From: Catajapyx aquilonaris
Taxonomy: Eukaryota
DNA: 62,350 bases
Reading direction: 5' to 3'
Assembly: GCA_000934665.2 (NCBI GenBank)
Contig: JYFJ02005096.1
Coordinates: forward strand, 1-62,350
Below are positions 181 to 60,506 of this stretch, piece by piece. Position numbers and translations under genes: made by a program. Position 1 is the first letter of the stretch. Each line of letters begins with the position of its first letter. Under the pieces are notes generated by a model, which was given only the letters and a program-made list of their open reading frames with translations, made no database searches and was not told the DNA's origin.

Positions 181-229
181 AATATGGTCTCACTGTATGT
201 ACTACAAGTTACAATAAAGGTCCGTGCAG

Positions 230-497
230 TCCCCCAGGGGGTCAGGTTTCCCTAGGTACAGGTCAGAAACTCCCCACTGACACTGCACCTCCTCATGGAC
301 AGGACAAGGATAGGAAAGGAAGGAATCGGCTGTGGCCTATTTTACGGTACGATCCCAGAATTTTTCCTGGGGCGACCTAGGAAAACCACAGAAAACCAGG
401 ATCAGGACCGCCGGCCTCCAGGACTCGAACCCAGGACCTCCCGATTAGCAGTCGGATACCATAATTATCCACTCCACCACTACTGCTTCGGTCCCCT
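230..497 (-). mobile_element. tRNA-derived SINE family C (core resembles orthopteran Lm1-type SINEs)
   Basis: B box GGTTCGAGTCC; core ggttttctgtggttt...aaaataggccacagccgattccttcc shared with the copy at 49950-50225. Confidence 0.7.
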
Positions 498-569
498 CTG
501 ACATTATGAATGCCCGTATAGAAAATAGATATTGTTTTCTCAAATGTGGCTTTCTATACATTGACTTAC

Positions 570-6334: not shown

Positions 6335-6425
<91 letters not shown>

Positions 6426-6779
6426 GGGGGAGGTGTGGTGGCCGTGATGGTAACGTCTCGGCTTGCTGAGTGAAAGGCCCCAGGTTCGATCCCCGCCTGG
6501 GGAACTTTCCTTTCACCTGCGTCAGGAGGGTCTCTGACCTGCACCAAGGAGGTGTCTGGCAACCTAACCTCCTGGGGGACAGCACATGACCCCTTTACCG
6601 ACATTGCACTTGCACCAATGGTTCCTCCCCAAAAATCCCTACCCCTACCCTACATCCTAGACTCCTTGCACCAGTGTATGACGTTAAACAGAGAGAAAAT
6701 GGTGGTATCTCACCCCCCTAAACAGGCTCAGCCTTATCACGGGGTAACGTAAATAATAATAATAATAATAATAATAATA

Positions 6780-6845
<66 letters not shown>

Positions 6846-9800
6846 ATCCTGGGGTTGTGCTTTCACCCCCAACTGGGGGTATATCACATGGACCTTTATT
6901 TTTATTATTATTGTACAGTAGTTGGTGCCTATTAATTGAAGCGCCCAGGCCCACGGGCAGGATGACCGGAGGGGATGTGCAAAGTGCAGTGCGCGGACTG
7001 TTATGGGTACATTTTGTGAACTCCCCTGGGTGGTTTAGTCTAAGGAAATACCACCCGAGACGAAGCCAGAGACGACCTAAACTCTGCACGAGATGAAGGG
7101 GGTGTCCTCGGGCTGGGATCGAACCCGGGACCTTAACATCCGTGGGCGCATACATTTCCGCAGTGCCACTCCACCTCCCCTACACAAACAATAGTAGCTA
7201 ATCAACAATACATGGTTGTAATATGGAAATACCCACGCCCAATCGCCAGGTAGACTGATAGTACTCGCAAAACTAGTATAGGGATGTGCAATGAGTTTTG
7301 GGCGCCCATGCGTAGTTAATGTGTACTGGCCTTTAAAGTGTAGAGGGACAGATGGTAAAATATGAGGTAAAAATGACACGTGCACGGGTGTCGTACCCAG
7401 ACTCTTACTTTGACGGGATTTGATCAGCTATTGCACATGGAGGATGTGTTACGGACCCAAGGCTGGATTGATCGGTAGCCCTTGATATGGTTTTTGCTTC
7501 TTTATAGCTGGCGGGATGTGACATCATGAAACTTTGATGGTGCTGTACATATTAACTATGCAACGGCGTCAAAAACTAATGGCACATCCCTATATTAGTT
7601 TTACAAGTACTATAAGTCTACCTGGCAATTGGGCGCAAGTTTCCCTTCAACTCCGTACATAGTACTTTCATTTGTGTGTTGCCAAGGTCATATCCATCAT
7701 TTGGTCCTATCCATACAGGGTGTTTGTTACTAGTCCAGCCAACGCCAGTCACAGTACTCGAGCCAAAAGAAGTCGAAAATGTAGGGGGGGGAAATGTCGA
7801 TGGACCAACCGTTAAATGACCTTGACCAGAAACATTGGTCAATGGCTGCCGAAGGAGCAGGATGAGCATGAAAATCGCGCCTGTTGGGATATTTGCAAGG
7901 TCGCCTCTTTCACAGAAGTGATTATCACTGCTCATATCCTGCAACTTCGGCAACCACCAACCAATGTTTCTGGTTGTCTATCTCGTTAACGGGTCTTTCG
8001 ATTCGTTGGTCTTTCGATATTTCTCCCCCCTACATTTTCAACTTGTTTTGGCCCTACGCTGACAGCCATTGGCTGGACTAGTTAGAAACACCGTGTATAA
8101 GAAATAAATCAATGGCATGTCTGAATTTCTGACTCTTTAAAGTAAAGCCATGAATTAATGCATATACATCATGGCATGCCCAATTACACGTAATTGCACA
8201 TCCTTGTAAGTGACAAAGAAAGAATTTTAATAGTTCATAAACAACAATTTTGAGCAGAGCAATGCAGGTGCCTCGAAGCATCAATCACTTAACCCTCAGA
8301 CGGTGACGTGCGAAATGTTCGCTCTCCGGTGACGTGGGCACTTTTTGTGACCAAGCCATATTTTTTGTTATATCTGGCGAAATATAGCACATTCGGGCTT
8401 CACTTTTGAGACAATCATAGTGTGATTCCTTCTACGACAAATAGCGTTTGGTTTTCATTTTTTGAGGAAATAGCGCGATCAGAAAAAAATCGGAAAGAAA
8501 ATCAGTCGGGGCCAACTCCCGGGGGTAGGGGGATTCCACCCCTTGGCGGCCTGGGATGCCACCGGGAGCCGCCAGACCGGATCTTGGTTAGGCCCCATCT
8601 ACGCATTGCCGCCTAATTTATTTTTTCCTGGTCGTGCTATTTGCTCAAAAAATGTAAACTAAACGTCATTCATCACAGAAATAGTCAAACGAAAATGTTC
8701 TCAAAGATGAATCTCGAATGTCCTAAATTTGCCAAGTTATAGCAAAAAAAGGGTCGTTGGTCACAAAAAGTGCCCACGTCACCGTCCGAGGGTTAAGCAC
8801 CAGGAAAACAGTTATGCAACTCTAATGTATGAATCCCTTGACATGACAATCCTGTTGTGCAGTCCAAGAATTTCACATGAGACATTTCTGTGCAGTAAAT
8901 TGAATGATTCCATATCACATACCTCCCAGCTGAGTCCTCCATATGAAGGCACAGGACATGAAGGACATTTTCCACAACTTCTCCAGCCTTACGCATACCC
9001 ATTCGAGGCCAGGCTGACACAGACGTACGCATAGTTTCAGCCATGAAGTGAGCTAGACGTAGCATCCGAGATGTCGTTAGATCAGCTGGATCCAAACATT
9101 CCTGCAAGCAACAGCAATACCTTTTTCCAGGAGGATGAACCAAAGAGAAACTGCAGCACTACAGTAATTGTAGCAGTGCACTAGCTACAAACTTCGTGAT
9201 AGCAGTGGGATAAGTGGCAACGGTTTGTTGCAACAGTATTAGTACAGTGAGCCCCCGTTACCTGCAGTTTCTTTATTTGCAGTTTCAGTTAACCGCAGCT
9301 TGAAAATATTAAATCAAACATTATGATTTTAACATCAGCATGTACGAGTATGAAAGTAAGTTCCTTTTTTAATTATACGTACAAACTACAAAGCACCCAC
9401 AGAATTAATATTACACACATCTTAAAGGTTCTACTTTCTACTTTTTTTCAACATAGTTTCCAGCCAAATCTAGGCATTTGTCAAAGAGTTACAGAAAATT
9501 TTGCATGCGTACGTCATAGGAGTTTGCCACCATCCATTCCCCCGCTGGACTGCAACTCCTCGCCATTGTCAAACCTCTGCTTTGTGTGCCATTTCTTCAT
9601 GTTAATGGACAGGTGGTAATCTCTACCCTCTAAATCGCTGCTCTGAGGGGGGTGATTGAACAATTCTCCCTTGAATTGTTGTGGCAGGGTTTCATTGCAA
9701 AAGGCAGTATGCAGGTGGGCATTGTTGCGCAAGAAAAACACGGTCCGCAATTCAACATGCCACAACGTTTCTTTGGAATGGCCATCCTTAAGCTCTGTAA

Positions 9801-26774: not shown

Positions 26775-29700
26775 TCAGTCATTGGCCTGGTTTTGCTCCT
26801 CCATTACCGAAAGTATCCAGGGAACAAAATTTGGCACGTTGGCGTATATCCCCGGAAGACGCGGATGGGCACACTTGACCCCCCAACTGACAACGCCCAC
26901 GACGGCCCAGGCTCCCCTCAGGGGACAAACTAGCGGTCCTCCAGAGTCACCTTGGCAAGCATCGCGTCCTCCCAAGGGCAGCCCAGCACACAACATACCC
27001 TCTGTCACCTGGAGGTCCATGGCCGACAGCCACTGGTTGCAGGTAGACCGAGACACAATCGGAAGTCGAGCAGCACGTACCGCTCTCTCGTACGGGGCCT
27101 CTGAAAGGTACATACTCGTTGTACAGTACTATACCCGACCATCGTACACATGTAGCAATACCTTCGCTGTCTTCCCTCTTCCCCCATCCCAATACGGTGC
27201 ACACGGTTCCAGCCGCCAGTTGCAGGTTAGCTGGAGGCAGGCAAACGGGCCTCAACATTTCTTGGAAGGTAACTGGAGAAGACAGCTGGAAAAGCGCCAC
27301 GTCGTTGTCATTGGAGTGGCCCACATTGTACAGAGGATGTGGTACGACTCGAGCTATGCGCGACGTCAGTCCAGAAAATGGGCGACGGGAGAGACCCAGC
27401 TGGATGGTCCAACCAGACGCGTCTGTCTGACTGGAAGAAAGCATTCAGGTGCTGTCAAAATGAATTTATTTTACGTACGAGCGTATGTAGAAAGAGATAT
27501 GGCAGTGCAAATAATGGACAGCTCCAAATAGTGCCTTTTTTCATTTATTCAGCAGGCGCCTTGCAAGCATGCTACTCGGTGAACGAGAGAGGCTCATGGT
27601 TGGCCGATACGCAAGGATGAAGCCAAGGCCATTCAACTCTCACAGTCATAGTCAGTCGGAGAGTGCAATCTCGGGCACGATGCTGTGCTTCAACCCGCTG
27701 TCCATTTTTTGGTGCCACAGATCAACCACAATATAAGTAACAGTAAGGAGAACCCACTTTCCAACGCAGTGTGCGGCCGTAAGGACCCACTGAGAAGACA
27801 CCAGGGCAGCCCCGCAGTAAAAGACTTGTGCCGGACCGCCTAGAAGCGCCGCCACGAAGGGCCACTCACCTGGAGGTGCTTCTCCTCCCCCAACCACACG
27901 CAACGACGCTCCAGACGCCCACCGAGGTCCTCGACGACCGCATTCTGCAATGGGACAGGTTCCATTCTCATAACATCTCTCCCCATACTGTCACTTAATA
28001 GCCATGGTATACACTTGCCGTAATCGGAGCAGTTGAGTGTGATTGGAAAGGAAGCGGCAGGAGAATTACGTCGACTTGCATGATGGACTAAATAAGTAGA
28101 GCTGTCGTCTGGACATGGACGCAACAGCTCTCGTAAGAGTTGGAGGAACGAACTGGTTTGGCGGTGGTGGCGTCGCGTATATTCGGCGGACGGTGATACT
28201 GGAGGGGGAAGCAACGAGGGTGGCTCGGCAGAAGAGAAGGACAGCGGCTGCCATCCGGAAGACGATTTGTAGCCCAGCAGCCGGCAAAGACGTGACGCCG
28301 ATTGATGAGATAAATCCCTGCGAGATATGCAGGCAGGACGCCAGTGACGCTTGGACGAATCGAACACCTGCACTTGGCCTCTGCCTTCTTCTTGCATTAC
28401 TTCGCTAAGACGCACTGAAATAATACATGTTGCCCGCATCAGTATTGTATACTATTGTATATGTAGCTCGAGTGAAGAGCCGGACATACCGCAGTTTCGT
28501 TCGTCCTGGCCTCGCGAGCAGTGGACGTGCCCGTCACAAAGCTGGTGTTGTGACAGGCAGCGACGCCTTCCACAATGTAATGTTCCTTCAGGGCAACCAT
28601 TGCAGTGTGTTTCATCGCTTTGATCCAGGCAGTCCACGTGCCCGTCACATCTCCATTCTGCAGGTACGCAGCGACGACCTCCATCGCACCACATCCCACT
28701 GCAGGCTGAATATAGTGAATTGCACATTATGTAAACGTGTTCATGAGGCTAAGGGAATGTAAATGAGCCGTACAGGGCGCTAAGGAATCCGCAGTCTCCT
28801 GCATAAACTCGGGCTCTCCAACGCAGGCGTCTGGATTCATGCGACCGTCTGGCAGAAGTTCGCAACTCAGCAACGGAGGAAGGGACAGCCCAAACACAGC
28901 CAGAAAGAAGCCGCACCTTCTCAGCGTCTCTGTAGGAATAAATCATTATTGAAACATATTTTTGTACCTACCAGCGACCGAGCGACGACACTCACCTCGG
29001 CACAGCGCTCGACACGGTGGCACAGGAGTTCCAGTGCTTCCTCCACACCGCGGAACAAGAAGAGCGCAAAGAAATAGCCTGGTCAGAGCATAACATCGGA
29101 CATTCACCAACACTTCCAACACCTCCAGTTCCTGCATCGAGACATAAACTCACTGTCAGTGAAATCAGCTACATACTATCAGTATACGGTGTATATATAC
29201 ACGTACGTGTTCAGCTTCTGGCTGCGTCAAGTGACCCACGAAGTTGGGAAATGCGGTGAAGTTGTAGGGAGATCTGAAAATACAGTTGTTATAACCACCA
29301 GTTCTGATTATAGTGCAGTGTAACGATTCTCACTTACCTGGGAAAGATGCACTGTCTGGCCACGACAGCGACGCAGACTCCGGGAGCAGGGTTGTCACCC
29401 CAGGAAGGAACTGGAAGAACGGGATTATCAGTCGTGGCACCAGAGCCATCTTGGTGCTGATGCTGGCTCCGAGAAGTCAGCAGGAAGAGAAGCAGACCGG
29501 CGCCAAGTATTATCAACGCAAAGACGTTAATAACTAGTTGCAGAATACGAAGTCGGCATTGGTGCTGATGCTGTTCAGGGGCAGCCGCCAGAAGAGGAGG
29601 CAAAGCTGCCGGTGCTGTCAGAGTTGTGGTGGCCGCGGTTGTGGTGTTGACAGCAGCAGCTGTGATTCCAGGCAAGAAGATGAATGCGGCCGGGGAAGAT

Positions 29701-32338: not shown

Positions 32339-35300
32339 TCAGTGAGCCCGACGATGTGCTGCCAGTGTCTGCAAGGCAGGGCTGGAGCTGAGAAAGGCTG
32401 GATCCACGCATGCGACTTTGGCTGTCAGGAATGCATGCATGCACAGTAGTAGAGACTGCAGTGAAGAGCATTCCAGCTCCTGGAAAGACACCAGTTGCAT
32501 AGTTCCTTCAATCTCCTGCTTACCTGCTGCCACACTTTCTATGGCCTGTTAGTTTTAATAGTGCAATGAAAATGAAAAGATGTCGCAAAGCGAATGCAAC
32601 ACTCTTCAAAGTGATATCACATGTCAACAGTGCCAACCATCCTGGATGGCCACGTTGGCATTCAAGAAACATGAGAGCAGCCCTACTGTGGCCTTGCCAG
32701 GTGCAAGAACTAAGCAGAGGAATATTATGGATCCAATATCTTGAAAGACATGCTATAGGATGCATACATAAGCTTTGATATTGCAATAACTTCTGGAGTA
32801 CAGTAACACAATAGAAACTAAACACATTTTCACATTTTTAGGAATATGGTGCTGAGTTTGAACAGGACATAATTATTCATGAAAACCTGGGGTCATGGGT
32901 GATAGAAGGCCACGTGTTCGTTAATCAAGTTCCCTCTCCAAATTTAATCAAGCCTGACACAAATTGTAATTACATTCTTCAGTTGGACGACCTAAAATCT
33001 TGAACTATCATGATCAATTTCCTTGATAATAATAACAAGGTATATTTATCAGCATGCTACCCATTGATAGGTGCTGCCTGAATTAGCAGTGCGATATGAA
33101 AATTTAACCACAGCATCAGAATCAGTTTCTCACACCAATTTTTCCAGGCAAAACCAGATTTGGAAATCCTACTATGGTCAACCTAAATTCTCAGCAATAG
33201 TTAATAATAATTAGAACCATTGAAATATTTAATTTTCAAGTCTCCTGTCTTCAGCCACCTGACCCCAAACTTGACAAATTTGGAAGAATTTAGCTTATTC
33301 GAGGGGCTTTCAGAAAGTCTTTACATTTTATTTTTTTGCCACAAATACAGGGCCCATGCAGGTCAGCAGATAGGCACACATGATCAATAGTAAGATCCCT
33401 CCTGGAGCAGAATGCACTCTAGCACCACGAGTGTATCAACCTCTCCAGGCCCACCAGGAACCACTTTTTGGAGGTTCGGCACACCCACCCCTGAACAACT
33501 GCTTCCTGTTCAACAATGTCCTCGAAATGGCATTGGCTAAGGGGTTTTTTTATGGCTCTGAACAGGTGTCAGGTGAAAGTCATGGGAGGCTCAGGGGGGA
33601 ATAGTGCGGGTGTGGAGACACCAAAAGCCAGATCAATGAAACAAACCCTTCGTCGAAGCCATTTTCCCAGGACATTGTTGACAGTTGTTGACTATAAGCA
33701 GTTGTCTGGGAGAACCTCCAAAAAGTGGTTCCAGGAGGGTTCTATCGATAATGTGTGCCTGTCTGCCAACCTGCATGGGCCCTGTATTTGTGGCAAAAAA
33801 ATAAAGTGTCAAGACTTTCCAAATGCCCCTCATAATAGAAAGAAATGGTGGGTCTACATGATCTCAGCTTCCCAAAAGAAACAAAATCAAAAGAACACAA
33901 TCTCATCATCACAAAAGCAATATATTCAATCAAACTAGCTGCTTTTTCGCATCTTCACAAGCAGTGCATGAGTACCACCTACATATCTTACAAGGACTAA
34001 CCCTTATGTCCATCTTCCGTGTATCAGGGTCTTGGAAGTGCAGGCGCAAACGGCACTTCCCATCATCTGATGACCCCTTCAGCTGTGAGAACTTGTACTT
34101 CCAGGAGTATTCCTTGGCCTGCGTATCATATAACCCAAACCCCATGCCCAAATCTAGAGTGAGCCCGGCTGTGCGACCCTCACTGGTCACAGAGAAGGTC
34201 TTGCTTCCAAGGCGGTGGACAGCAGTGCAGACTGCCCTATGCCATGCACCTTCCAGACGTAGTAGCTCCTGGCGCGTCTCCACAGAGAGGTAGTGAGAGC
34301 AAGGCTGGTTGGGGTCTGGTGCAGCTGGGTTCGTAGAAGGTGGGGGTGAAGGAGGAGGGGGAGGAGGAGGAGGAGAAACTGACGGGGATGAATGAGAAGG
34401 AGATGGAGGTCCTGGGGAGAGAGATGGAGGATTCCCATGAATAGAACCCTTTGGAGTGAGAGTGCCCGATTGTGGGGGGTTTTGTGGCTGTCCCTGCAGG
34501 GTCTGCAGCAGAAAGCAGTGCTGGCGCTCATCCACATTTTCTGAAGCCTTGAGCACACGCAATAAGCTCTGGTGGAGGCGGAACACACGTGGACAAGCAT
34601 CCCAGTCCTCAGGACAGCGAGGAGCCCCCTTTTCAAACAGGTACACATCTGAACCCCGCAAGGCCAGGAAGCGGGGCTGCCACGTCTGCCAAGGTTGACC
34701 TCCACTAAGGAGGCCTTCGCTCACCCATCCCATGTATGAGATACGCTCCCGAGATGATAGGCCACGGTTGTGAAGAGTCATCTGTAACAAAGCATATTAT
34801 CTGTTGGGGCATCATTTGCAGGTAAATTTTTACACATAACAATGCCTGCACTAAACTTCTCCATGATATGCAGCAATTCCATGCACAATCAAAACTGTAA
34901 CCATTATTGATAACCACTCATAAGACAGGAACAATGCTCTGAAGAGTTCATTCCCTTATTTGATGAGCTTGTGCATTTCTCCAAGTGGATGGGAAATTGG
35001 GGACCAACACGTGGGAGTCCAAACCTCCCATTCCACCCAGTTACCCACACACTGAGAAATTGTGCAAGGTGATGAAGAAAGTAGGGCTAAATGCACTCTA
35101 GCTCAAACATGTTAGTCAACAAGTACAGACTAAGCATGCATCAGGGCACTATCAGAGATGTGGGTATTGGGTGCATTTTTATCTAAGCATCTCGCAAATG
35201 TGTAGGTGTATAATATTCATACACCATGTGTTTTAGAACATCTAGTTCACATCTGAATTTGTGAAATTTCACAGATGCTTGCCCCAGTTCACTGTCAGGT

Positions 35301-38300
35301 TTGGTTTGGTTTCAAGATTGCATGCCAAGAACCCTCTTGTTGATATACAGTATAGAAGAAGTCTCCAGAGCACCAAGTGATACAGATATTGTATCACATT
35401 GTACCACTCATTGTATTTTATCTAATGCATCTAGTACTCTATGGACATCAACTCTATGTCATCATAAAGGAGTGGATAAGCACACAACAAAAGATCCTCA
35501 TGAAATACCCTAGTTTTTCCAATACCCGTCTCAGATACGCCAATCAATTGTTATCCCACAAAATTCCCAGCCTTACTTTTAAAAAAAGGTTTACCACTTT
35601 GCCACCCCTTACTGGGTATTGGGGGGGAGGGGGGGGGGCACGACTCATCTGCACCCAATGATACCGAAGTAGTCCAGGATAATACTGGAACCTTTTGACG
35701 AAGCACCCGGGCCCAAGGGCAGGGTGACTGGGAGGTAATGTACAAGTGCAATGTCTATAACGTGGTACATTTTGTGAACTCCCCCGGGTGGATTAGTCTA
35801 TAGGAGATTCCACCCAAGATGAAGCCAGAGATGACCTAACTATGCATGCGATGAAGGGGGGAACCCCGGGCTGGGATCGAACCTGGGACCTAAACATCCG
35901 TGGGCGCATACGTTACCGCAGCGCCACTCTGTCTCCCCCCAGCCATATTAGTAAGTATAAAGGCTGCCTAGTTATTTGTTAATTATATCACATATTAACA
36001 AAATATTTTGGTTAAAATGTCCCACTTGACAAAGCCTGGTTAAAGATGACCAACACAATGCTTCATCTTGTTATGAATCAGTGTTACATATTTAAAATGG
36101 TTCTCATGTGAACATGAGGTCACATTGGAGTTTTTTGATGTCTTTGTCACGGAATAAACCCTTTTTGGGTGTGATTTTGTACTAAAAGAACCTGTAAGAC
36201 TTAGTATTTGTTATGGCAGTGTATTACAATCAATCACACACTGATTAAGTTATGAGCACAATACAAGCAACATATGAACACTTCAATTTTCTGATAGTAA
36301 CGTTACAGCAAACTTTCGATATGTGACATACATCACCTGGTTCCACGAAAAACCACAAGGAAAAGAATCCTCATGACATGTCTACACCAACCAGCAGAAG
36401 GTTGCCCATGCTCTTTTCAGGAAGAAGAATACAGTATGTTGCCTCAGCTCCTAACAGACATGGAAGTACAAAACAACAAGTCACCTGCAGATTGGTGAGT
36501 CCAACGATGTTGTCAGTAATGTGCTTCATCCACTGTGACAGGGATGCTGCATCATCACAGTGGATGATCCCAGTACTAGTCCCATTGACGCCTCTGACTT
36601 CGAATGCATTGGGACGCAGCTTGTCTGTCCCATACATGTAACGTGTAAAGTATGCCAGCATCAATGGCACTGCCACAATGTCCACCCATCGCTTGTCCAT
36701 GGAACAAGGGGTGACTGAGCCTGATGAGTTGCTGAGTGACGGATCACTGCCAGGTAGGCACTCATTGGAGGATGAGTGGCTGCAGCGTGGAGCTAAACGC
36801 TCGTTGTCTAGCTGCTGCTGCTGCTGAGATTGGTGATGGTGATGGTGATGGTGTTCAACAGCTATAGCGGTTGTTGGGGAGCGCCAGCCATCCTCAGGAC
36901 GTAGTTGTGCAGTAGCTGGGGAGTTGTTCAGCTGGCGGTCTTCCCGGTCTGCTGCTAGAATGGAGGTTATCATCGGCACCCTAGAAATAATTCATCTATA
37001 CAAGAGGACTCACGGCTTCGCTGCAAGAAAGGTGTGGCTGCTCGGTAGTGCTTGACTGTGAGCTGTACTTCATTTCCAGCAGATCTCAGTACTTGCACTG
37101 CCTCATCATGAGTTGTATTAGTCATCATGATCCCATTAACTGAAAGCAAATCCCGCATTCAAAGGTAATGATCCAATGTGTTACTCCAATCCTAGGCAGA
37201 CAACTGACTTCCTCACCTCTGAGAACAGCATCTCCAACAAAGAGACGCCCGGTTTGATCAGCTGCTTGCCCCTTTACGATACGTGAGATGAGTATAGGCA
37301 GACGATGTTCAGCTCCTCCCTTGATGCTGAACCCAAGCCCACCTGCCCTCTGGCGCACAACCACCACCTCCCGGATCCCAGAATCTACAGGCGCATCTCC
37401 GTCTTCCTCCTCCTCCACTTCAATTCCTCCGGGAGAGATGGAAGGCCGAGCACTTACAGTTTGGTGCTCTTCTTCGCGCTCTCGTTGAAGTACTAGGGTG
37501 TCCTGACTCAATCTTAGGCGCACTGGCCTGGGTCTGGACTTTCCATCACTAACCATAACCATGCCATAGCGAACCTGTAAAAGGGCAATGGATTCTTAAG
37601 AACTTTAACCAAAGCCCTAAATCAGGGGGCAGGATGCAAGTCTGTGATGCAAAGGAGGCTTCCTTGTGACTCCTAAATGCACAATAAGTTTTATAGAAAG
37701 TACAGGCTCCTACCATTTATATATATGTTTATTGTTAAGTATATCCCCGTGAAGATGTACCCTAGTATACACAAGAAAACAGTGAGAACCAAATATGCAA
37801 ATGTCAAGTTGCATGGTTTTGTTTGGCTTGGCATTGCATCTAGATCACTTAGTTTTGCAGCTTTTCAAGTAATTTAATTCACTATTAAACAATATGATTC
37901 AAAGCAGTAGCCTAACATTTTTTACATTACAAACAATTATGGTGGAAAGTGCTTCCCATATGTTGGAGGAGGCTACGTGCATGCCTAGCAAGTCCTACCT
38001 TCTCCCTCCTTTCTGGGCGGCCTTCCATGGCCTCAGATGCCCCTGGAGCCACCTCTGCCACTTTCAAATGAGTCCACCACGTTGCAATCAATCCTGCATT
38101 CTCCTCTCAGGATGTCAGGGAGGTGGAAATATAACCTGTCCACCTAATCAATATTTTCATCAATTTATTAGGTATTGATCAGGTAAATGTAATGAGCTGG
38201 AAATTGAAACCAAGAAGCATTAAAGGTGTATTAGTATCACATGCTTTTAAGTGCATGTGGTGTGTTCATCACTTTTTATGCAAAATGACATCAGCTTTTG

Positions 38301-46500: not shown

Positions 46501-49158
46501 ACCTTATTAAGCACGTTAAAACCAATATATGTGTGTCCTAATCGGAACTCTCGTCTTGTAGCCACGACCTGTAGTGCTATTTTAAATCGTAACCTGTGAC
46601 CCTAAAATGCAGTTCAGTCATAGTTATCGTATTCTATGTTATTTTATAAGCAACACTTAAGAAGGCATGAACAGCAAACAAGGCTTAGCCAGAATGAAGT
46701 GATATCAGCAGTACTTTATACATCAGAAATGAATATATTGATGATCAAGTGGACAAGAATGCCACATTCCATAATGTTCCAGATTTATTTAAATGGCAAA
46801 TGTCCTCAAGTTACATCAATTTGTTTTATTACTTTGCAAACTTCCAATTCCAAGTGACCATGAGACTGAACACACAATTTCAAGTCAGCCTAATTTGGAA
46901 ATGTTTTCAATTTACTAAAATGTTTCAATACTTTGCTGCAGTATGGGGAAAAAAAAGTTCTGTCTCAACAACACAACAACAGTGTCTTCCAAATGTACCA
47001 TGCAATTCCATTCATCAAGCATGTTTTCAAGTAAGACAAGGTGGAAAACATTTGTTCTGTTTTGCTTTCTGAACCAGAAATTCACTTAAAGGAAGAGTTC
47101 AGTGATTTTGCATGTTGGGCTTCAATGGAAAGCTCCCTGATTCCAAAAATGTGGTCAGTTTTTGAATCTGACGCCGCGTCAGCAAATGCTGTTAGGTGAA
47201 GGTTGAAACCGCTACTGTATTCAATATGGTACTCATACAGCTAGTGCCTCCTGCGGAGATGCTAAGCATAGTTACCGGAATCTCCGCGGGAAGAGCTAGC
47301 TGTATGAGTACCATATCGAATACAGCAGCGGTTTCGACTTCACCTAACGGCATTTGCTTACGCAGCGTCAGATTCAAAAACTGACCACGTTTTTGGAATC
47401 AAGGAGTCTTCCTTGATCTTTGAATCCCAACTTGCAAAATCACTGAACCTTCCTTTAAACACCTCAAGAAACTTTCAATTTTCTGAAGAACTCTTACCTT
47501 TGTCCATAAAGGGTCCTCCAGCAAGCAAATAGTATTCTGTGTCATGGGGTATGGCTCTCCAATACTGGTCATACCCAAAGTGGTATGCTTCAATTGAGGT
47601 ATTGAGAACATACTGGTACAAGGGCACGTTCCTTGCGAGAAGCAGCTTTACAGCCTCATCTGAGGGAGCTACGTAGAGGGAGTCAGACAGGAACTGCACA
47701 TACTGCTCTCGTATGTGAGTTACATTGGGCGGGTCAGGCCAGTAGGTGTACATGTATTGTATGGCATTGAAGATGGCATCTGGATTCAGTGTGTAGTTAA
47801 ACTGTAATATGTACTCATGGATCTTTTGATCAAAAAACTTTTGGGTGATCTCAAAACGTGGGAACAGGCTCTGATTCTGGTACACAAGGTAAGCTGCCTC
47901 ATCTCGAGTGACCCCAGACAGGTAGCGCAATCTGGAGAGGTCAACATCAGGTCGTTGTAACATGTCACGTGGATGTTGTGGCAGCAACCGCCAGTCTTCA
48001 GGTCGCCAGCCATTGATTACACCGTCACTTGGAATACGAATATCCCCATCTACCACACCAGACCATGGGAAGTACCCTAGCATTGGTTTAAGTTCAATGC
48101 TACCTAACTCGTGGTAGCTCCTCCCACGGCGGAGGCAACTGACCAGTTTGTAGGTGGTATCAGATGCACATCCTGCTTTCTCAGCAAATAGTTTGCTTGT
48201 GTTTAGCACTCGGTAATTATCCTGTATCACAGCCCAATCAGCAACTAATGACCCACTTTGAGCGATCACCTGTGACACCATTTCTCTAGTGCGAGGTGCA
48301 ACTGCCAAAATTCCAGCAGATGCTGCACCAGCCCCAGGCCCAAACAATGTTATATTATGTGGATTCCCATGGAAATTGCGTATGTTCTCATAAACCCAAC
48401 GAACAGCCATGGCCTGATCAAGCAATCCATAATTACCAGGTGACTGCTCATCGCCAGTGCTCAAAAATCCTAGTGCTCCCAGCCGGTAGTTAAAGGTGAC
48501 TATAATCACCTTATACATTGCTGCCATCATGTGACCAGGGAAGGCATTGGATGCACCATGTTCAAAGTGGCCTCCATGTATGTATATCATAACAGGGTAT
48601 GACTCAGCTGTTCCTTGGCTCAAAAGGGGTGAAAAAATGTTCAGGTACAGGCAGTCTTCATCTACACGTCGGACGCCTTGTGTATTTCCTGTGTATCGTA
48701 CTGGTTGTGGACATGCAGGGCCAAAATCAACTGCCTGCCACAAACTCCATCCACTGCTTGGTCTTGGGGGACGGAATCTCCCTATATCAACAGGTGGCTG
48801 AGCATAAGGGATACCCAAAAATACCGCCAGAGTAAGCCAATTACGGTCAACCTTTCCATAGGGCTGCCCAGGACGGTCTTGAGGGTCCAGCCCAGGCTTA
48901 TCATACAGTTGCACCTGAAAACCCTGGACAGTGCCATATCCAGTTTGGACTGTGACAGCTACAGGAGGTTTGATCGAGATACCAATGCGCTCTTCACCCT
49001 GGAGATCTGGACGCCAAGCCCCGAGGACACCAGGGGCAGGGGTAGTACTGGACTGGCCTGGGTACCACTGTCCACGATAGCTTGGGCGTTGCTGGCCATA
49101 TCGGGGGTCCTAAAATATAATAACACTTCAGTAAAACATGATATAACACATATGTGAT

Positions 49159-49225
<67 letters not shown>

Positions 49226-49561
49226 CACCACGACATTTCCCTATAAGGTGTAGTCAGCGATGACGGGAGCCACAAGCTAACCCAAAATATGAACTACATT
49301 AAAAATGGTAAAAATCAGCCTATAAACCACCCATATAAACCCCCCCCCCCTGCCCATCACAGACAACAAACTCTCAATATTAAATATAAAATATAAATAT
49401 TACACGACTACGCAACGCGGTACTTAAGAAACCCCCCCCCCCGGAAGAGGAATCAGCAACTGTTAAATTCCTCCAAGTGACCATAATATTCTCCTCCAAA
49501 CGACCAAAACACCCACAGGCCAGCGAGAAGAACCAGCATACAGAAATCCATACCCTAACTA

Positions 49562-49617
<56 letters not shown>

Positions 49618-49874
49618 GAGGGCGACACGGTGGCCGAGTGGTTAGCGCCGCAGCCTTCCACCTCTAAGGTCCCGAGTTCGATCCCCAGACCGGACAGAGG
49701 ATACTTATGTGGATAGAGTTTCGATGGGTTCTCTCCATATTCGCGTGGGTTTTCTCGGGGTTCTCCCGTTTCCTCCCACTATCAAAATCCATCACATTAC
49801 AGGGAAATGATTAAAGTCAGTCTATTAAAAGATGATCCCCTAAAAAGCCCAAGGAGGCTTATCACGGGGTATCC

Positions 49875-49949
<75 letters not shown>

Positions 49950-51874
49950 TCATACCCCGTTATCAGCCAGCGGCTCTTTAGGGGGGAGTTCACCCCAATT
50001 TTGTTTTGACTGGAACTCTTTGCTTTCATTTTTCTTTGCTTTTGGGAATAGGATAGGGATGGAAGGAAGCGGCTGTGGCCTATTTTTAAGGAAACATACC
50101 CCGGAATTATCCTGGGAGGACCGTGGGAAACCACAGAAAACCACGGTCAGGGTCGCCGGCCCCGGGATTCGAACACAGGACCTCCCGATTAGCAGGCGGA
50201 CTCCATATCCCCTACACCACACATGTGATTTTGAATTAACCTATTACGGTATCACTGCTCAATTCAGCTTATACAGGGTGGTCCAACTTTATTGTCCGAA
50301 CAGCTATTGACAAATTCGGCCTAAGCTGCTTATGTTGTAGTGCGTTACCTGGCAACCCTGTCTGGCGGGCCAATTCAAACATCAGCCCATGGAGACTGCT
50401 TCCATTGTTGCCACTGTTTACTAATTGAGTGAGTGACGCGGATGACCCAGCGACGGATCTCTTCTGCCTGCGCACTCACTCATTCGATTTGTAAACAGTG
50501 GCAACAATGGAAGCGCTATCCATGGGCTGATGTTTTAATTGGCCCGCCGGACAGGGTTGCCAGGTAATGCACTACAACATAAGCAGCTTAGGCCGAATTT
50601 GTCAATAGCTGCGTGATAGCTGTTCGGACAAAAAAGTTGGACCACCCTGTAGTTAATTACCCAAGTCCCATGCAGTCAATATGATGACCATAAAAAATAA
50701 ACACATCCTATCTTCAAGGTCAAAATTATTGGTGTACAGCCCTAAGAAATCAAACCTTTACACTGCTGTTCTACCAAAAACTGTTGCATCTGCACATTTC
50801 AATAATGACACTTGGGCCATACAATACAATACCATTTCGCAATGTGCATAGGTTTGTCAGTACGATGGCAATGGAGACGGCAATTGATTGATAAGTCCCT
50901 TTGGTTGGGCCAGACGTATCCTCTTTCAAGTCTCTTTGGACAACGAAATGTTGCTAGGTACATTGTTAATTTCCCCCCAGACCCAACATTGCCAATTCTG
51001 GTGGCTGCAGTGGGTAAGATAATGCAACAAAGTACAAACTGGTGTTCTTTTCAAGTGCATTAAAATGCTTACTTTCATGAGTACTGAGGATCAACATAAT
51101 GCAAACTAGCCCTTTGTTATGCTGCCATGGCCTTTTCAGCACTTGCTAAAATAATGCTCGGGTGGAATTTTCGTCGTACTACTTGTTACTTCTAACTTAG
51201 CAGTACCAGTGCAGTACACTTCTAAGTTAGCAGTACAACGAAAATTCCACTCCTAGTTTTTAAAAATGCAGTATAATACATACAGGTGGATATGGGTCTG
51301 GATCCCTGGGTCTGTAGGGATCTCCTGGCTGATGGCGGCTGTCATAGCCATATCGGTCCTCTGGCCTGTATGGATCCTGGTTCCGGTACCTCACTTCTGG
51401 TGGAGGGTATCTGTCAACTGATGGCCTGTAGTCGACAGGACGGTGCTCATCCCTTGACCCTGAGCTGGGAACAAAATCCGGACGTGCTGGCGGTGGTTCA
51501 ATGGTGGAATGGACTGGATACCTGTAGGAGTGTTGGTCACGACCATACTGATCACGGTCATACAGTTCACGAGATTCATATGGATATGGCCTTGGTTGGT
51601 TAGGATCTAGACGTGAGCTGTTATATGAACGTTGCCAGGAGCCATCATACGACCTTTGCGGTGAGCCATCATACGGACGCTGTGAGCCATCATAAGGGCG
51701 CTGTTGGGTGTCGTATGGTTGTTGTCGTTGGCCGTCATACTGGTTGGGTCGAGGAATGTTGCGGTTGACGTTGTACGAGTTGAATGTCCGACCGTCATCC
51801 TCGTCGTTGTGCCGTTGCTGTCCGAATGTTGTTGTCAGCAGCAGTAGTACACACATGCAAATTACAGTCGTCAT
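43541..51874 (-). CDS. Gli: Gliotactin (non-catalytic cholinesterase-like adhesion protein of tricellular junctions)
   Basis: Exons 51874-51284, 49109-47498, 46485-46184, 46122-46007, 44060-43541. Signal peptide; FLGIPYAQPP, EDCLYLNIF, GNYGLLDQ; catalytic Ser replaced (FGPGAG); FWWEPREPLQIAFW before the TM helix; C-terminal PDZ ligand PQTSV. Confidence 0.93.
44250..44555. mobile_element. MITE with 3-bp flank duplication
   Basis: AGT|AGGGACAAGATAACTCATGC...GCATGAGTTATATCTTGTCCCT|AGT. Confidence 0.75.
44965..45478. mobile_element. Near-perfect ~500-bp palindromic (fold-back) element
   Basis: Inverted arms of about 250 bp around a few-nucleotide loop near 45220; it explains the mirror-image ORFs 45071+/45186-. 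Confidence 0.85.
45655..45870. mobile_element. Short degenerate MITE
   Basis: gggcaattcca..gtccgtacgtaacgcag / cttgcgttacgtacggac..tggaatttccc inverted ends. Confidence 0.6.
47090..47454. mobile_element. Palindromic Kolobok-type MITE
   Basis: TTAA|AGG...CCT|TTAA; arms inverted almost to the centre. Confidence 0.75.
49161..49560 (-). mobile_element. 3' end of a LINE with (ATT)n tail
   Basis: acatttccc..gtagtcagcgatga..caagctaaccca..atatgaacta block shared with 53510-53600, next to a microsatellite tail. Confidence 0.55.
49617..49948 (+). mobile_element. tRNA-derived SINE family E with V-domain-like core, flanked by (AAT)n
   Basis: A box TGGCCGAGTGG, B box AGTTCGATCC, core gcgtgggttttctcggggttctcccgtttcctccca; tail TTATCACGGGGTATCC(AAT)n. 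Confidence 0.8.
49950..50225 (-). mobile_element. tRNA-derived SINE family C, second copy
   Basis: B box GTTCGAATCC; core shared with 230-497; tail GATAACGGGGTATG(ATT)n. Confidence 0.8.
50274..50649. mobile_element. Tc1/mariner-type MITE (copy 2 of 15529-15933 family)
   Basis: Same TIRs, TA flanks. Confidence 0.9.
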
Positions 51875-55826: not shown

Positions 55827-58800
55827 ATGGCGGTGACGAAGAGCGCGGCTGGCCAGCAGCCGGGGTCTGCGGCTGCTGCAGGAGTGGTGCCCACCTCTTC
55901 GGCATCGGTGGCGCAAGGTGTGCTCTCCCACGTCCGGATGGAGCACCTGGTAGCCGGAGTCTCCGGAGGGGTGGTCTCCACGCTGGCCCTCCATCCCTTG
56001 GACCTGATCAAGATCAGGTTCGCCGCCAACGACGGACGCCTGGCCCTGCACCCGCAGTACCGGGGCTTGGGAAACGCCTTCGCCTCCATCCTCAGGCATG
56101 AGGGCCTACAGGGACTGTACAGGGGGGTCACCCCTAACATGTGGGGCGCCGGGACAGCCTGGGGATTCTACTTCCTCTTGTACGTAGCACAGTGCACCAT
56201 GTGTGGGGTGGTGATGGTCGTCGTGGGGTGGGGGAGTGACCTCTCTCTTTCTCTGGCTGGGTGCTGTGATGTAATCAGGCCCTCTGGTTGCATCAGTCTG
56301 CTCAATTAGTTTGAACTGTAGCATGCATCAAGGCATGGTAGCATTCAATCTCTCAGGGAAAGCCTAGGGAAATCAAGCAGTTGCATGCTATTCACTTTTA
56401 ATGAATTCCAATCAATACTTTCTATTTGAGTAGGACTAATATGTTTTGTGTTACAACCATTACAGTGTAACTTGTCACCAAGGTTACACAACTAAAGATA
56501 CAAAAGCTATCAATGGGTTAATAGATGTTATTGTTGATTAACCATTTCCAATGACATCTGTTTAACCTTCAGTATGTCTCCTATCATAAGTGGTGTACTG
56601 GTGTAACCAGGTCTAAGCTGATTAAGTTGAAACTGACTGGAGCATAAACTTGCATTGCGGATCCTTTACTTTGTCCTGACAGAGGATTTTCCATGTAGTT
56701 ATGCGCTATGCAACAGAAAATATTTGCTGTACCAGGGGACAAGGTGTGCATGATATTGACAGGAGCTCCCCCTCTGTGCTCAGAAGCTGCACCGAGATCC
56801 TGCGTCATTCAATGGTTTCATTTTGTAAGTTAGTTATTTAATCCACAGCACCTGTGATTGGCATCAAGTCTTGCAAACTATTTTCTGGCACAATTTTAAC
56901 TATCAGCAGAAGCATACTTCCATTTTACCTTCGGCCCTAGTTTTTCAATGCATAGTGTTTCTTGTGAAAGGTGACATTGGAATCTTTTGCAGTATTGATG
57001 CATCTGCCACTTGCCATTTCATTGTGCCTTATGTTGAGAAAAACTATTACTGACACTCATAATTGCTTGTTTCTTAGTTACAATGCCATCAAGACTTGGT
57101 TGCAAGGAGGTAACCCACAAAAGCCAATTGGACCCACTTGGCACATGATGGCAGCTGCCCAGTCTGGTGTACTTACCTTGATATTGACAAATCCCATATG
57201 GGTGGTGAAGACGCGCCTGTGCCTTCAGTACGGAGAACGCGACCTGGCAGCACTCTCGGAGAGCAAGCAATACAAGGGCATGATGGATGCCCTTAACAAG
57301 GTCTACCGATATGAGGGGCTGAAAGGGCTCTATAAGGTATACCTCTCTTTCACCAGATGTTCACTCTTTCACTAATGAATTTCTTCTTCCTCCTAGGGTT
57401 TCTTGCCTGGAATGTTTGGCGTATCACATGGCGCACTGCAGTTCATGACCTATGAGGAAATGAAAACTGTGTACAATCAGTACCGAGGGATGCCCATAGA
57501 TACAAAGTTGGTGAGTACTCACAAGATGAGGGTAGATCAGTAAAGATTTTAAACGAGCACAGTAATTTCACATTAGAAGACATTAGTAGTGATAGTGTGA
57601 AAAACCAATCCTAGGTTATATTAGAGTCTACAGAAATCATCGTGCATTGCATTTGCACTTTTGAATATAGATTTTTGGTGGCACTATCATTGAAAGTGTG
57701 AAATGGATCGTAGGATATGTTCTAATTGGTACTCTGAATTTGTCCAGGGTACAGCTGAATACCTTGGGTTTGCAGCGGCATCTAAACTGGTAGCTGCCAC
57801 CACCACCTACCCATATCAGGTTGTGAGGGTTCGCCTTCAGGATCACCACCGTGATTACACTGGGGTCATGGATGTTGTGAGGCAGACGTGGAGGTATGAG
57901 GGTGTGCGTGGGTTCTATCGGGGACTTACGCCATACCTATTGCACGTGCTGCCCAACATCTGCCTCGTGCTTCTCATCTATGAGAAGTTTGCAGGAAATC
58001 TGCCCAACTGAAATTTTCAAGTTTCTCTCACCTCCACCCAACACTTTGCATCCTTTCATACTTCCCTAGTATTTATTTTACTACCTTTTAAGGCTAATGG
58101 GACTGTCTCTTGCCTGTGTGCCAAAGAGCTAAAATCTGACCGAATCTCTTGGGGAGCAGAAGTCTTGTGTGTAATGTTGGCTGTCAATGACCTTTGTAAT
58201 CAGTGCTGAAAAGTGCTCAATGTGCAACCTAAGAAGTGGCAATTATATGAATTGAAGCATTTCAGGGAATGTAGACTATGTAGGTGCATAGAGCCAGTGA
58301 CTCTTTTTAAAAGTACACCTCTCTTTTTCACATGGCAGATGAATACTACACCACTTTTTATTTATTTTATTTTTTGTTCATCTAGATTGGAGAAAAGGGG
58401 GAATGGGGTGTGTTCACTTTGCATTGCAGGATGGCTACTGAAGTCATGTAGAGTCCCTTATTTTCTGTTTGATTATGCAGGTGAATACAAATGTAGGATT
58501 TGAATACGTAACTGGGATAGTTCTGATAATACCGCTCATAATGAGTGTTTGTGTCAGTAGATCATGGCAATAAGTAAGAGTCATGACAGCTATCATAGCA
58601 ATTTTAGGTCAACTGTAGCAGCAATGTCTTGTTTTCACCTGGCCCTTTACTTTCTGTCTGAAAAGTACCTCATGGAAGTGAGTGGATAAAACACTCCCTA
58701 GAAAGGGGAGAAAACCTGGAAGGAGAACTGGGGAGAGAAAACTTGAGGGAAGCCTGCAGTATTATCACGGGTTGCTATTTGTTGTGGCAATTTTGTGTCA

Positions 58801-59352
58801 GTGTATATGTGGTTCCTTGTTTCTAGAAACATTGTGTCTCAACAGGGTGTCAAAATGTGGAAGTCATGTGACTTCTCACCTTGCTGGGTTAAAAAGATGT
58901 GTAATTATATGAGGGTTGTGAGGCAGAGCTGGATCCTTTGCCACCCTCAAGTGGAGGTAACGAGGCCGTACCTAATTAAGTTATTGCTCATAACTTATTT
59001 GCTGAAATGGGGTATTTCCCAGCTGGGTCTGGGATATAATTTATATCTGGGATGGGATTTTGGCAATGAAAAAAAAAAAATATACAGCACGAGGTTGTGA
59101 TTGTTCAGTTATGTTGCACTCATTTTCCTGCTTCATTGTGTAATGAGACTTCTACAGTCATATCTTCAGCAAGCAGTGCAGAAGTACAGCTGTGTTCCTT
59201 TTCACAGATTCGAGGGTCTGAAGGGATTTTACAAGGGGTTGGTGCCAAACCTCATCCGTGTCACTCCGGCCACCGCCATCACATTTGTGGTTTATGAGAA
59301 TGTGGTGCATTCCCTGGCCTCGAAGAGGCAAAAGCACACTGATCTCGTCTGA
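55827..59352 (+). CDS. SLC25A32: Mitochondrial folate/FAD carrier SLC25A32, isoform with canonical distal last exon
   Basis: Exons 55827-56179, 57078-57336, 57397-57510, 57748-57893, 59208-59352. Carrier motifs [23 protein letters not shown] (SLC25A32-typical W), [13 protein letters not shown]-terminus [33 protein letters not shown] at 59412. Confidence 0.93.
57894..58011 (+). CDS. SLC25A32: Alternative proximal C-terminus of SLC25A32 (second version of helix 6)
   Basis: Reading through the donor at 57894 gives [38 protein letters not shown], colinear with the distal exon. Confidence 0.8.
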
Positions 59353-60186
59353 TATTAGCAGTATTCCAGAAAACAAATAATGAAGTGCCATATATAACTA
59401 GATTGAAGGGCAATAAAAACATCATGCCCATTATGATAGCAAATCTCTTGCATTTCGGGTTTTATTTATTTCTTTTTTTTAAACTTTCTGTTCAAAATGG
59501 ATCCCCAACAGACCCCAACCCCAGGGCGTGATACTTCAGTCCCATCAATAGTTCCTTATACACAGGGGTGGAAAAAACCTTTTAAAACACTCAACTGCTC
59601 ATAGCAGATAGAAAACTAATATAATAAACACTGTGCACAAGTGATATCAAAGTAGTAGAAATGGCTGATATGTGTTGGTAGCTGTCTCTTAGAACTTGCA
59701 ACAATATAGCTGCACGGTACCTACGAACAGTCAAAACACAAGCGCAGCAAAAAAAAAAAAAATACATGGCACTGGCAAATGTTGCCTGGAACAGCACTAA
59801 CTTCTCGCTGCACTTGACTAGACAAGTTTGATGCAATTGGATCCATGTTACAGTACAAGAGATAAAGGATCTGTAGGGAGATATCCTAAACATTTAAGGA
59901 CCTGTGCAAGTTAAAAGGTATTGAAAAAACACTGGACAAAGCAGGCTGACATATACAAAAAATGCACCTGCACTATTTTCTAAAAAAGGATCACTTTGGT
60001 GCCTCTTTTATAATAATAAAAAATCATCTGGAAGCACATTGGCTATCTTTGTGTAGTGCTTTGGAAGGATGTGTTTGGAACGTGGTGAAGGCAAACCTCT
60101 CTCTAGCTTCCTTAAAAGACAGCCGAGTCTCCTTGCAGAGCAGGCGAGTGTGTTCGGGAGAGGCGGGGGTGAGGGCAAGGCTTATG

Positions 60187-60506
60187 TCAGCAAGACGCGC
60201 AGCTTGACTTCGCTGTACCAATCGAGTTGGGTGTCTTCCCATCAATTGAAATGCGGCCAGGATCTGACTCGGAGTTGCTGTGGTTCCCCTGCTCGTTGGC
60301 CATTATCTGTTGAAGGGTTTATTATATAAGAAAAGCCATAGATCGATGAGAATTTCTTATACCTGTGACACAAGGAATGTGGCCGCCTCATCTATGTTGA
60401 TGTTGTCCTTTGCCGAGGTCTTGAACCATCCACAGAAGCCCTTCTCCCGTGCAAACTCATCCATTTTGGCTTGATTCTCAAAGGGTGGTTCACCACCTAA
60501 GTCACA
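60187..60506 (-). CDS. Rab32: Rab32/Rab38-family small GTPase, last two exons (not in ORF track; 5' exons not found in window)
   Basis: Exon 60506-60363 = CDLGGEPPFENQAKMDEFAREKGFCGWFKTSAKDNINIDEAATFLVSQ (G4 end and G5, Rab32-typical GWFxTSAKDNINI). Exon 60306-60187 ends ...AKSSCASC*. Confidence 0.88.

Follow-up and report, generated by a model that had tools for sequence, protein, structure and literature searches.

Our analysis of a 62,350-nucleotide stretch of the Catajapyx aquilonaris genome (contig JYFJ02005096.1, positions 1 to 62,350 of the forward strand; this whole stretch is hereafter called the window) confirmed the observation, made earlier in a sequence-only reading of the same DNA, that it contains an SLC25A32-like gene on the + strand with two alternative, complete versions of helix 6. 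The explanation that we favor is that one gene would give rise to two full-length mitochondrial carriers, with helices 1-5 common to both and only helix 6 different. Removal of the last intron (57894-59207) would yield the canonical Arg-type helix 6, as in fungal Flx1 and human SLC25A32; its retention would let translation continue from exon 4 into an embedded His-type helix 6 and stop at 58009-58011, the read-through mRNA having no exon junction behind this stop. The swap of helix 6 would re-tune the central substrate site, with less positive charge and with an added aromatic and an added titratable residue, and given such an altered site the isoforms would differ in substrate, charge balance or pH dependence. 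We assign this explanation as a whole a probability of about 0.6. It is very probable that the isoforms are real, conserved and expressed, and the sequences tip the balance slightly in favor of transport properties (substrate, charge or pH dependence) that differ between them. The interpretation offered in the sequence-only reading is thereby partly supported: the switch, the contact point and the age hold, and a changed substrate specificity or an added pH sensitivity is an inference.

The last intron is delimited by the exon 4 donor AG/GTATGA at 57893/57894 and the acceptor ...TTTTCACAG/A at 59207/59208. In the spliced form, which has an open frame of 338 amino acids (aa), the Arg codon CGT is at 59257-59259 and the stop codon at 59350-59352, and in the unspliced form (open frame of 329 aa) the His codon CAC is at 57943-57945 and the stop codon at 58009-58011. 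Going from the Arg-type to the His-type tail, Asn is replaced by Tyr at position -3 and Ala by Asn at position +4 relative to the contact residue. The sequence-only reading had claimed two full versions of helix 6, produced by splicing 57893 to 59208 or by read-through, with Arg (59257) replaced by His (57943) and with Asn-to-Tyr and Ala-to-Asn changes one turn either side; the coordinates and frames hold, the codon positions are exact, and the flanking changes are those found at -3 and +4. The two tails can be aligned without gaps (14/38 identical residues, E 2e-11), and exon 4 together with the proximal tail covers positions 6-90 of the 96 positions of the Pfam Mito_carr profile (E 1.7e-19). 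For the start of an intron, such a match of the read-through stretch to the carrier profile is far beyond chance.

Membership in the SLC25 family and the three-repeat organization are supported by Mito_carr matches of exon 1 (E 1.7e-18), exon 2 (E 2.9e-11) and exon 3 (E 0.0045). The strict signature P-x-[DE]-x-x-[KR] occurs once, as PLDLIK at residue 57, and repeats 2 and 3 carry P-I-W-V-V-K-T-R and P-Y-Q-V-V-R-x-R, respectively, which are invariant in 35 relatives; we take these variants to be typical of the SLC25A32/Flx1 subfamily. In one-way searches, nearly all named matches were annotated as SLC25A32, "mitochondrial folate transporter/carrier" or Flx1, and no name of another carrier subfamily was found among them. 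The best named matches come from hemipteran insects and a copepod (71-75% identity).

The sequence-only reading had identified the changed residue of helix 6 as contact point III of the carrier binding site, and alignment to solved ADP/ATP carriers (AAC) bears this out. In HMMER alignments, His66 (numbered in the translation of exon 4 plus tail) falls on R279 of bovine AAC1 (1okc), R287 of TtAac (6gci) and R294 of yeast Aac2, while the Tyr and Asn of the His-type tail fall on N276 and G283 of bovine AAC1 (1okc); R287 is named contact point III in the passages of PMC7611774 and PMC11529707 considered here. The positive charge at this point is present in the Arg-type isoform and is replaced by His in the His-type isoform. 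From the alignments, three cavity-facing residues of helix 6, each a turn away from the next, seem to have changed in concert, each being apparently fixed in the His type.

The His-type helix retains carrier hallmarks, namely the GxxxG-like G-F-Y-K-G and Y-E. The AlphaFold model of a His-type relative encoded in the metagenome locus L001, used in place of the window's own joined protein, has a predicted local distance difference test score (pLDDT) of 93.6, a predicted template modelling score (pTM) of 0.89 and six long transmembrane helices, with helix 6 at 285-307. Template modelling scores (TM-scores, normalized by query/target length) of this model are 0.78/0.83 to human UCP1 (8hbv) and 0.69/0.73 to AAC (1okc). 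The His-type protein is thus predicted to fold as a complete carrier.

The only sequencing run that matched the stretch is X1, a run of unrecorded kind with 78% of the sampled words present. As its contigs have GT..AG joints at all four introns (56179>57078, 57334>57395, 57509>57747 and 57891>59206, where a cut shifted by +2 gives 57893>59208), they derive, at least partly, from spliced RNA. A separate X1 contig of 1217 nucleotides is unspliced from 57864 to 59080, that is, across the donor, the proximal tail and its stop codon, and ends at a run of 12 A's (A12). Positions 59081-59205 are present in no X1 contig, and the spliced contig joins across that part. Both forms were seen here in contigs; a mature His-type mRNA of this animal is not proven by them. 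Several weak variants of the poly(A) signal lie in the kept stretch (TTTAAA 58306, AATACA 58484, GATAAA 58685, AATGAA 59065 and AATATA 59079). The A12 run (59069-59080) could be a poly(A) site served by the weak AATGAA at 59065, a point of internal priming by oligo-dT, or a break in the graph or assembly.

A scan of metagenome contigs gave 80 loci, many of which were near-duplicates (50 of the 62 tails are distinct, the window included). The His-type tail was found in 61 of the 80 loci and in the window, with an open frame and an intact signature. Sixteen of the 80 loci, like the window, carry both tails, the His-type tail always being first and contiguous with exon 4, and the Arg-type exon following 212-3095 nucleotides downstream behind a pyrimidine tract and AG. 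The donor motif AG/GTAYGA at the Arg and Tyr codons is present in 35 of the 41 loci (window included) assigned to the "genomic-like" rather than the complementary DNA (cDNA)-like class by a crude regular expression (regex). Because the donor is embedded in the Arg-Tyr-Glu codons, one and the same stretch serves as coding sequence and as splice signal. Since the proximal tail is contiguous with exon 4, lacks a separate acceptor and terminates at a stop codon, it does not have the layout of a mutually exclusive cassette.

Locus L001 is a cDNA-like contig with an intact His-type open reading frame (ORF) of 310 aa, from which the upstream introns have been removed, and the Arg-type exon lies 606 nucleotides further on; the His form of this relative therefore derives from an mRNA with the last intron simply left in. 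In this locus the kept-intron RNA continues through the distal exon. Two further loci are identical over 90 nucleotides before the junction, one (L070) having exon 4 joined to the Arg-type tail and the other (L076) running from exon 4 into the His-type tail.

The embedded GT donor is missing in loci L046-L053, L056, L064 and L065 and in the Eurytemora protein P0348, where R-N, K-H or R-H stand in place of R-Y; the groups without it include "RNEG" and "KHEG". No Arg-type exon was found within 6 kb downstream in the 12-kb locus L056. In the short unnamed protein fragments P0234, P0239 and P0253 the His-type tail looks, from the sequence, like a separate exon with a dedicated acceptor. Some lineages may now have the two forms as ordinary alternative exons or as separate genes.

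Among the 120 protein matches listed for a query composed of exon 4 and the proximal tail, 63 have His-type ends, 55 have Arg-type ends (fungal Flx1-like proteins included) and two are gene models with both tails, His type first (Tigriopus and Armadillidium nasatum). No His-type helix was found among the fungal matches of this search, all fungal tails being of the Arg type. A profile search added many more matches, including His-type tails from the annelids Dimorphilus, Capitella and Paralvinella and from a scorpion, a tick, spiders, mites, copepods and crayfish, as well as fused models with both tails from Cotesia, Trachymyrmex and Anopheles christyi. His-type tails thus span insects, crustaceans, arachnids, three annelids and one chiton (lineages were checked for four of the named species), with the near-constant signature P-Y-L-x-H-V-x-P-N-I-C-x-V. 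In many species the His type is the only annotated form. Cluster look-ups revealed RefSeq isoforms with both tails in four species: the chiton Liolophura sinensis (X1, His type; X2, Arg type), the bee Ceratina calcarata (X3/X1-2), the aphid Rhopalosiphum maidis (X2/X1) and the leafhopper Macrosteles quadrilineatus (X2/X1). The sequence-only reading had supposed that dual C-termini were ancient and occurred in other insects; their range proved to be wider, including chelicerates, crustaceans, annelids and a mollusc. From these sequences, the keep-or-remove switch at the last intron is at least protostome-wide, which is a lower bound, with deuterostomes, cnidarians, nematodes and Drosophila melanogaster lying outside the targeted searches.

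When the 43-aa tail was used as query, a loose His-type pattern fitted 40 of the 147 proteins newly found, most of them unnamed; the names recovered among the new matches by two cluster look-ups were only Intoshia, Tropilaelaps and Saitoella. At least one protein, P0158, is a false match to the loose pattern. A region-limited protein search (19 candidates) yielded nothing new except P0123, which has neither tail type. Both tails are held by the fused models P0171 (Intoshia linei), P0315, P0316, P0317, P0008 and P0035; fused-tail models are mis-annotations due to the tandem tails. In the model of the orthonectid Intoshia (1134 aa), a divergent tail with the His precedes an Arg tail, and the model continues into an apparent voltage-gated cation channel. 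A plant record of 573 aa (P0318, Syzygium grande) was sixth in the profile search (E 3e-62); its inspected part has an Arg-type helix of another carrier kind, and its rank may reflect multi-repeat scoring or a fused model.

The ratio of nonsynonymous to synonymous substitution rates (dN/dS) of the proximal tail, which the sequence-only reading had named as a check, was estimated by pairwise Nei-Gojobori comparisons over 31 codons of the tail. The median is 0.135 for the His-type tail (50 distinct sequences, 217 of 1225 pairs usable) and 0.150 for the Arg-type tail (31 distinct sequences, 125/465 pairs); for 30 codons of exon 4 it is 0.237 (49 distinct sequences, 254/1176 pairs). All synonymous codons are in use at the invariant residues of the His-type tail. 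Among the distinct His-type tails Tyr is present in 50/50 and Asn in 49/50, His being fixed by the selection regex. The codon comparisons indicate purifying selection on both tails. In a tree of 47 tails, 24 His-type tails form one group, supported by an SH-aLRT (Shimodaira-Hasegawa-like approximate likelihood-ratio test) value of 84, within which annelids, chelicerates, crustaceans and insects each cluster. This is most simply explained if the last coding segment was duplicated once, before Ecdysozoa and Spiralia separated, the Arg type being the ancestral one.

Several observations weigh against the two-carrier explanation. No run recorded as RNA matched the stretch. On the exon side of the donor, the read-through contig of this animal extends over 30 letters, the bridging rule being 31, and an overhang of this length is what a graph with k=31 yields at a fork. 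Parts of intron 1 are also covered by X1 contigs (two records), so precursor RNA or DNA is present in X1, and the read-through contig could be pre-mRNA or DNA; contig depths can neither give isoform ratios nor rank the forms. No canonical AATAAA or ATTAAA was found on the + strand within 58012-59207, and the 3' end of the kept-intron form is undefined. Part of the search for the dN/dS loci used the pattern HV[TLM]PNIC[LI]V, and the regex that then selected them fixes H and P, which makes the invariance of these two residues circular; in addition, dS is near saturation or saturated and usable pairs are few. With Intoshia included, support for the His group is 69, and the tree is built on 32 columns only. 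The portion of PMC7611774 dealing with contact point III denies it a role in specificity, giving its almost always positive charge as the reason, a statement which cautions against a simple "new substrate" reading. Finally, the alternative isoform dPCoAC-B of a fly carrier showed no transport, as far as the consulted part of PMC7504413 goes.

A rival view, in which the proximal tail is left over from an exon duplication and decaying, with the read-through RNA a product of splicing noise, would fit the partial coverage of other introns by X1 contigs and the lack of a canonical poly(A) signal in the kept stretch. A relic would hardly, however, keep an open frame and an intact signature in 61/80 loci and in named species of three phyla, with a dN/dS of 0.135 and all synonymous codons in use at invariant residues, nor would RefSeq and transcriptome-derived proteins be expected to end in the His tail. 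This account is extremely improbable, and the conservation data would seem to leave virtually no room for it. A regulatory alternative, in which the isoforms do not differ in substrate or mode of transport and the choice serves control via the 3' untranslated region (UTR), length of the C-terminal tail, stability or membrane targeting, deserves more weight, though it too is unlikely. It is consistent with the description of contact point III as generic rather than specificity-determining (PMC7611774, in the part cited above) and with the differences of the two forms past helix 6, where a short C-terminus (...YEKFxxx) stands against a longer charged one and the 3' UTRs are different. Yet the His tail is most strongly conserved within its helix, at the cavity-facing positions Tyr (50/50), His (regex-fixed) and Asn (49/50), its C-terminal end is freely variable, and a regulatory switch alone would not need a second helix maintained at such a dN/dS over the age of the protostomes.

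It is still less probable that the His-type protein does not transport at all and instead has a regulatory, dominant-negative or scaffolding role. The His type lacks the positive charge that contact point III has almost universally, and the precedent is again dPCoAC-B, an isoform of the fly CG4241 carrier with no transport under any condition tried, in the account that could be consulted (PMC7504413). On the other side, the His type is predicted with high confidence to have a complete carrier fold, its helix keeps the hallmarks G-F-Y-K-G and Y-E, and many species annotate the His type alone.

The features of the gene are listed in Table 1.

Table 1. Features of the SLC25A32-like gene in the window (positions are those of the window).
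Feature	Positions	Strand	Evidence
Coding exon 1; carrier repeat 1	55827..56179	+	ATG 55827, ORF, Mito_carr E 1.7e-18, contig joint 56179>57078 (GT..AG)
Coding exon 2; first part of repeat 2	57078..57336	+	contig joints 56179>57078 and 57334>57395 (cut +2), splice sites, Mito_carr
Coding exon 3; helix 4 end of repeat 2	57397..57510	+	contig joint 57509>57747 (cut +1); donor TTG/GTGAGT
Coding exon 4 (shared by the two isoforms); helix 5 and matrix loop of repeat 3	57748..57893	+	sequence, Mito_carr, contigs
Internal 5' splice site AG/GTATGA, also coding Arg-Tyr-Glu in the read-through form	57892..57899	+	sequence; contig joint
Proximal (His-type) tail: alternative helix 6 and stop TGA 58009-58011	57894..58011	+	translated only on retention of the last intron
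Cavity-facing residues of the His-type helix: Tyr 57934-57936, His 57943-57945, Asn 57955-57957	57934..57957	+	alignment to 1okc/6gci
Stretch past the proximal stop, found in a cDNA-like contig; either retained intron or the 3' UTR of the read-through form	58012..59080	+	joint-free contig 57864-59080
Genomic A12 run, end point of the read-through contig	59069..59080	+	sequence, contig
Pyrimidine tract and acceptor AG of the last intron	59188..59207	+	sequence, contig joint
Distal (Arg-type) last coding exon: canonical helix 6, stop 59350-59352	59208..59352	+	Mito_carr E 9.6e-11, contig joint
First canonical AATAAA past the distal stop	59412..59417	+	motif scan; second AATAAA 59623-59628

Several other features were seen in the window. 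An exon-like ORF on the - strand (60357-60506), reading ...FCGWFKTSAKDNINIDEAATFLV... and converging on the 3' end of the carrier gene, is presumably part of a gene for a Rab32/38-type small GTPase. A single open frame of 544 aa (47475-49109, - strand) has, by eye, the look of a carboxylesterase or neuroligin-type protein. Also on the - strand are exon-like ORFs with the trypsin-type serine protease motifs TAAHC and GDSGGP (26775-27990), and ORFs with a PDZ-like stretch (GLGFSIKGG...) and proline-rich segments (33930-37595), the gene of which, we assume, may be syntrophin-like. Long trinucleotide repeats, reading as poly-Ile, poly-Asn or poly-Tyr in several frames, occupy 6230-7100 and 49380-50310.

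Isoforms with the two tails are present in RefSeq for several species, so their existence is already database knowledge. In a literature search covering few subscription journals and no supplements, no paper was found on the two SLC25A32 tails, their age or the contact-point change, which agrees with the suggestion of the sequence-only reading that the switch may be functionally unstudied; the main text of a review of Drosophila carriers does not mention CG8026, SLC25A32 or folate. Direct measurement of transport is absent even for the canonical human and yeast proteins, the substrate of SLC25A32 never having been measured directly (PMC9311062), and folate versus flavin adenine dinucleotide (FAD) is still argued. 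A natural pair of isoforms is therefore a direct handle on this question. The pair amounts to a natural experiment, in which helices 1-5 are identical, the cavity-facing residues of helix 6 are different, and both versions have apparently been selected since before the split of arthropods, annelids and molluscs. A comparison of the isoforms would bear on the extent to which substrate choice and charge or pH dependence in SLC25 carriers are determined by contact point III and the residues next to it; as this point is nearly always positive, a conserved His is an exception worth explaining. There are also consequences for annotation, many invertebrate gene models listing a single tail or fusing both, and for insect knock-downs of "the" folate/FAD carrier, which hit two proteins together.

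A more far-reaching proposal, which we put forward only tentatively and consider doubtful, is that the His-type protein is a second transporter, hidden in the last SLC25A32 intron of all protostomes and having its own substrate or coupling, with the Arg-type protein keeping the Flx1-like role. Such a carrier might handle a less anionic aromatic cofactor (riboflavin or flavin mononucleotide, or a folate) or might be coupled to protons via the His. If this were true, the flavin and the folate activities, over which there has been dispute in the case of SLC25A32 for two decades, would both be covered by one gene, and one of the two would have been lost or outsourced in vertebrates.

With respect to known systems, the Arg-type isoform is the form orthologous to human SLC25A32 and yeast Flx1, and its helix 6 motif PNLxRVxPAxxITFxVYE is common with fungal Flx1-like proteins; human SLC25A32 is reported, in the section of PMC7432027 available to us, with a single protein of 315 aa. 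The Drosophila dephospho-CoA (coenzyme A) carrier gene CG4241 is likewise an arthropod SLC25 gene with two spliced isoforms, A and B, of unequal behaviour (PMC7504413, in the part consulted), although it encodes a carrier different from SLC25A32. The RefSeq isoforms of SLC25A32 in Ceratina calcarata, Rhopalosiphum maidis, Macrosteles quadrilineatus and Liolophura sinensis show the same switch on a common body, ending in ...PYLxHVxPNICxV... or ...PNLxRVxPAxxITF...; these are automatic annotations only, and the organism of the window is not among them. In the secreted and membrane forms of immunoglobulin mu, two C-termini arise by use of an internal donor in a longer terminal exon versus an unspliced 3' end. 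In contrast to immunoglobulin mu, both C-termini described here are homologous copies of one helix, and in the relative L001 the kept-intron RNA runs through the distal exon. The closest described parallel is the pair of exons 3A and 3B of SLC25A3, where one SLC25 gene likewise encodes two carriers different in one membrane segment; in the part of PMC13252106 considered, these exons are described as mutually exclusive, and the resulting forms as slightly different in phosphate affinity. Unlike in SLC25A3, here it is the last intron that is kept or removed, the tails are identical at 14 of 38 positions, and the contact point changes its class from Arg to His.

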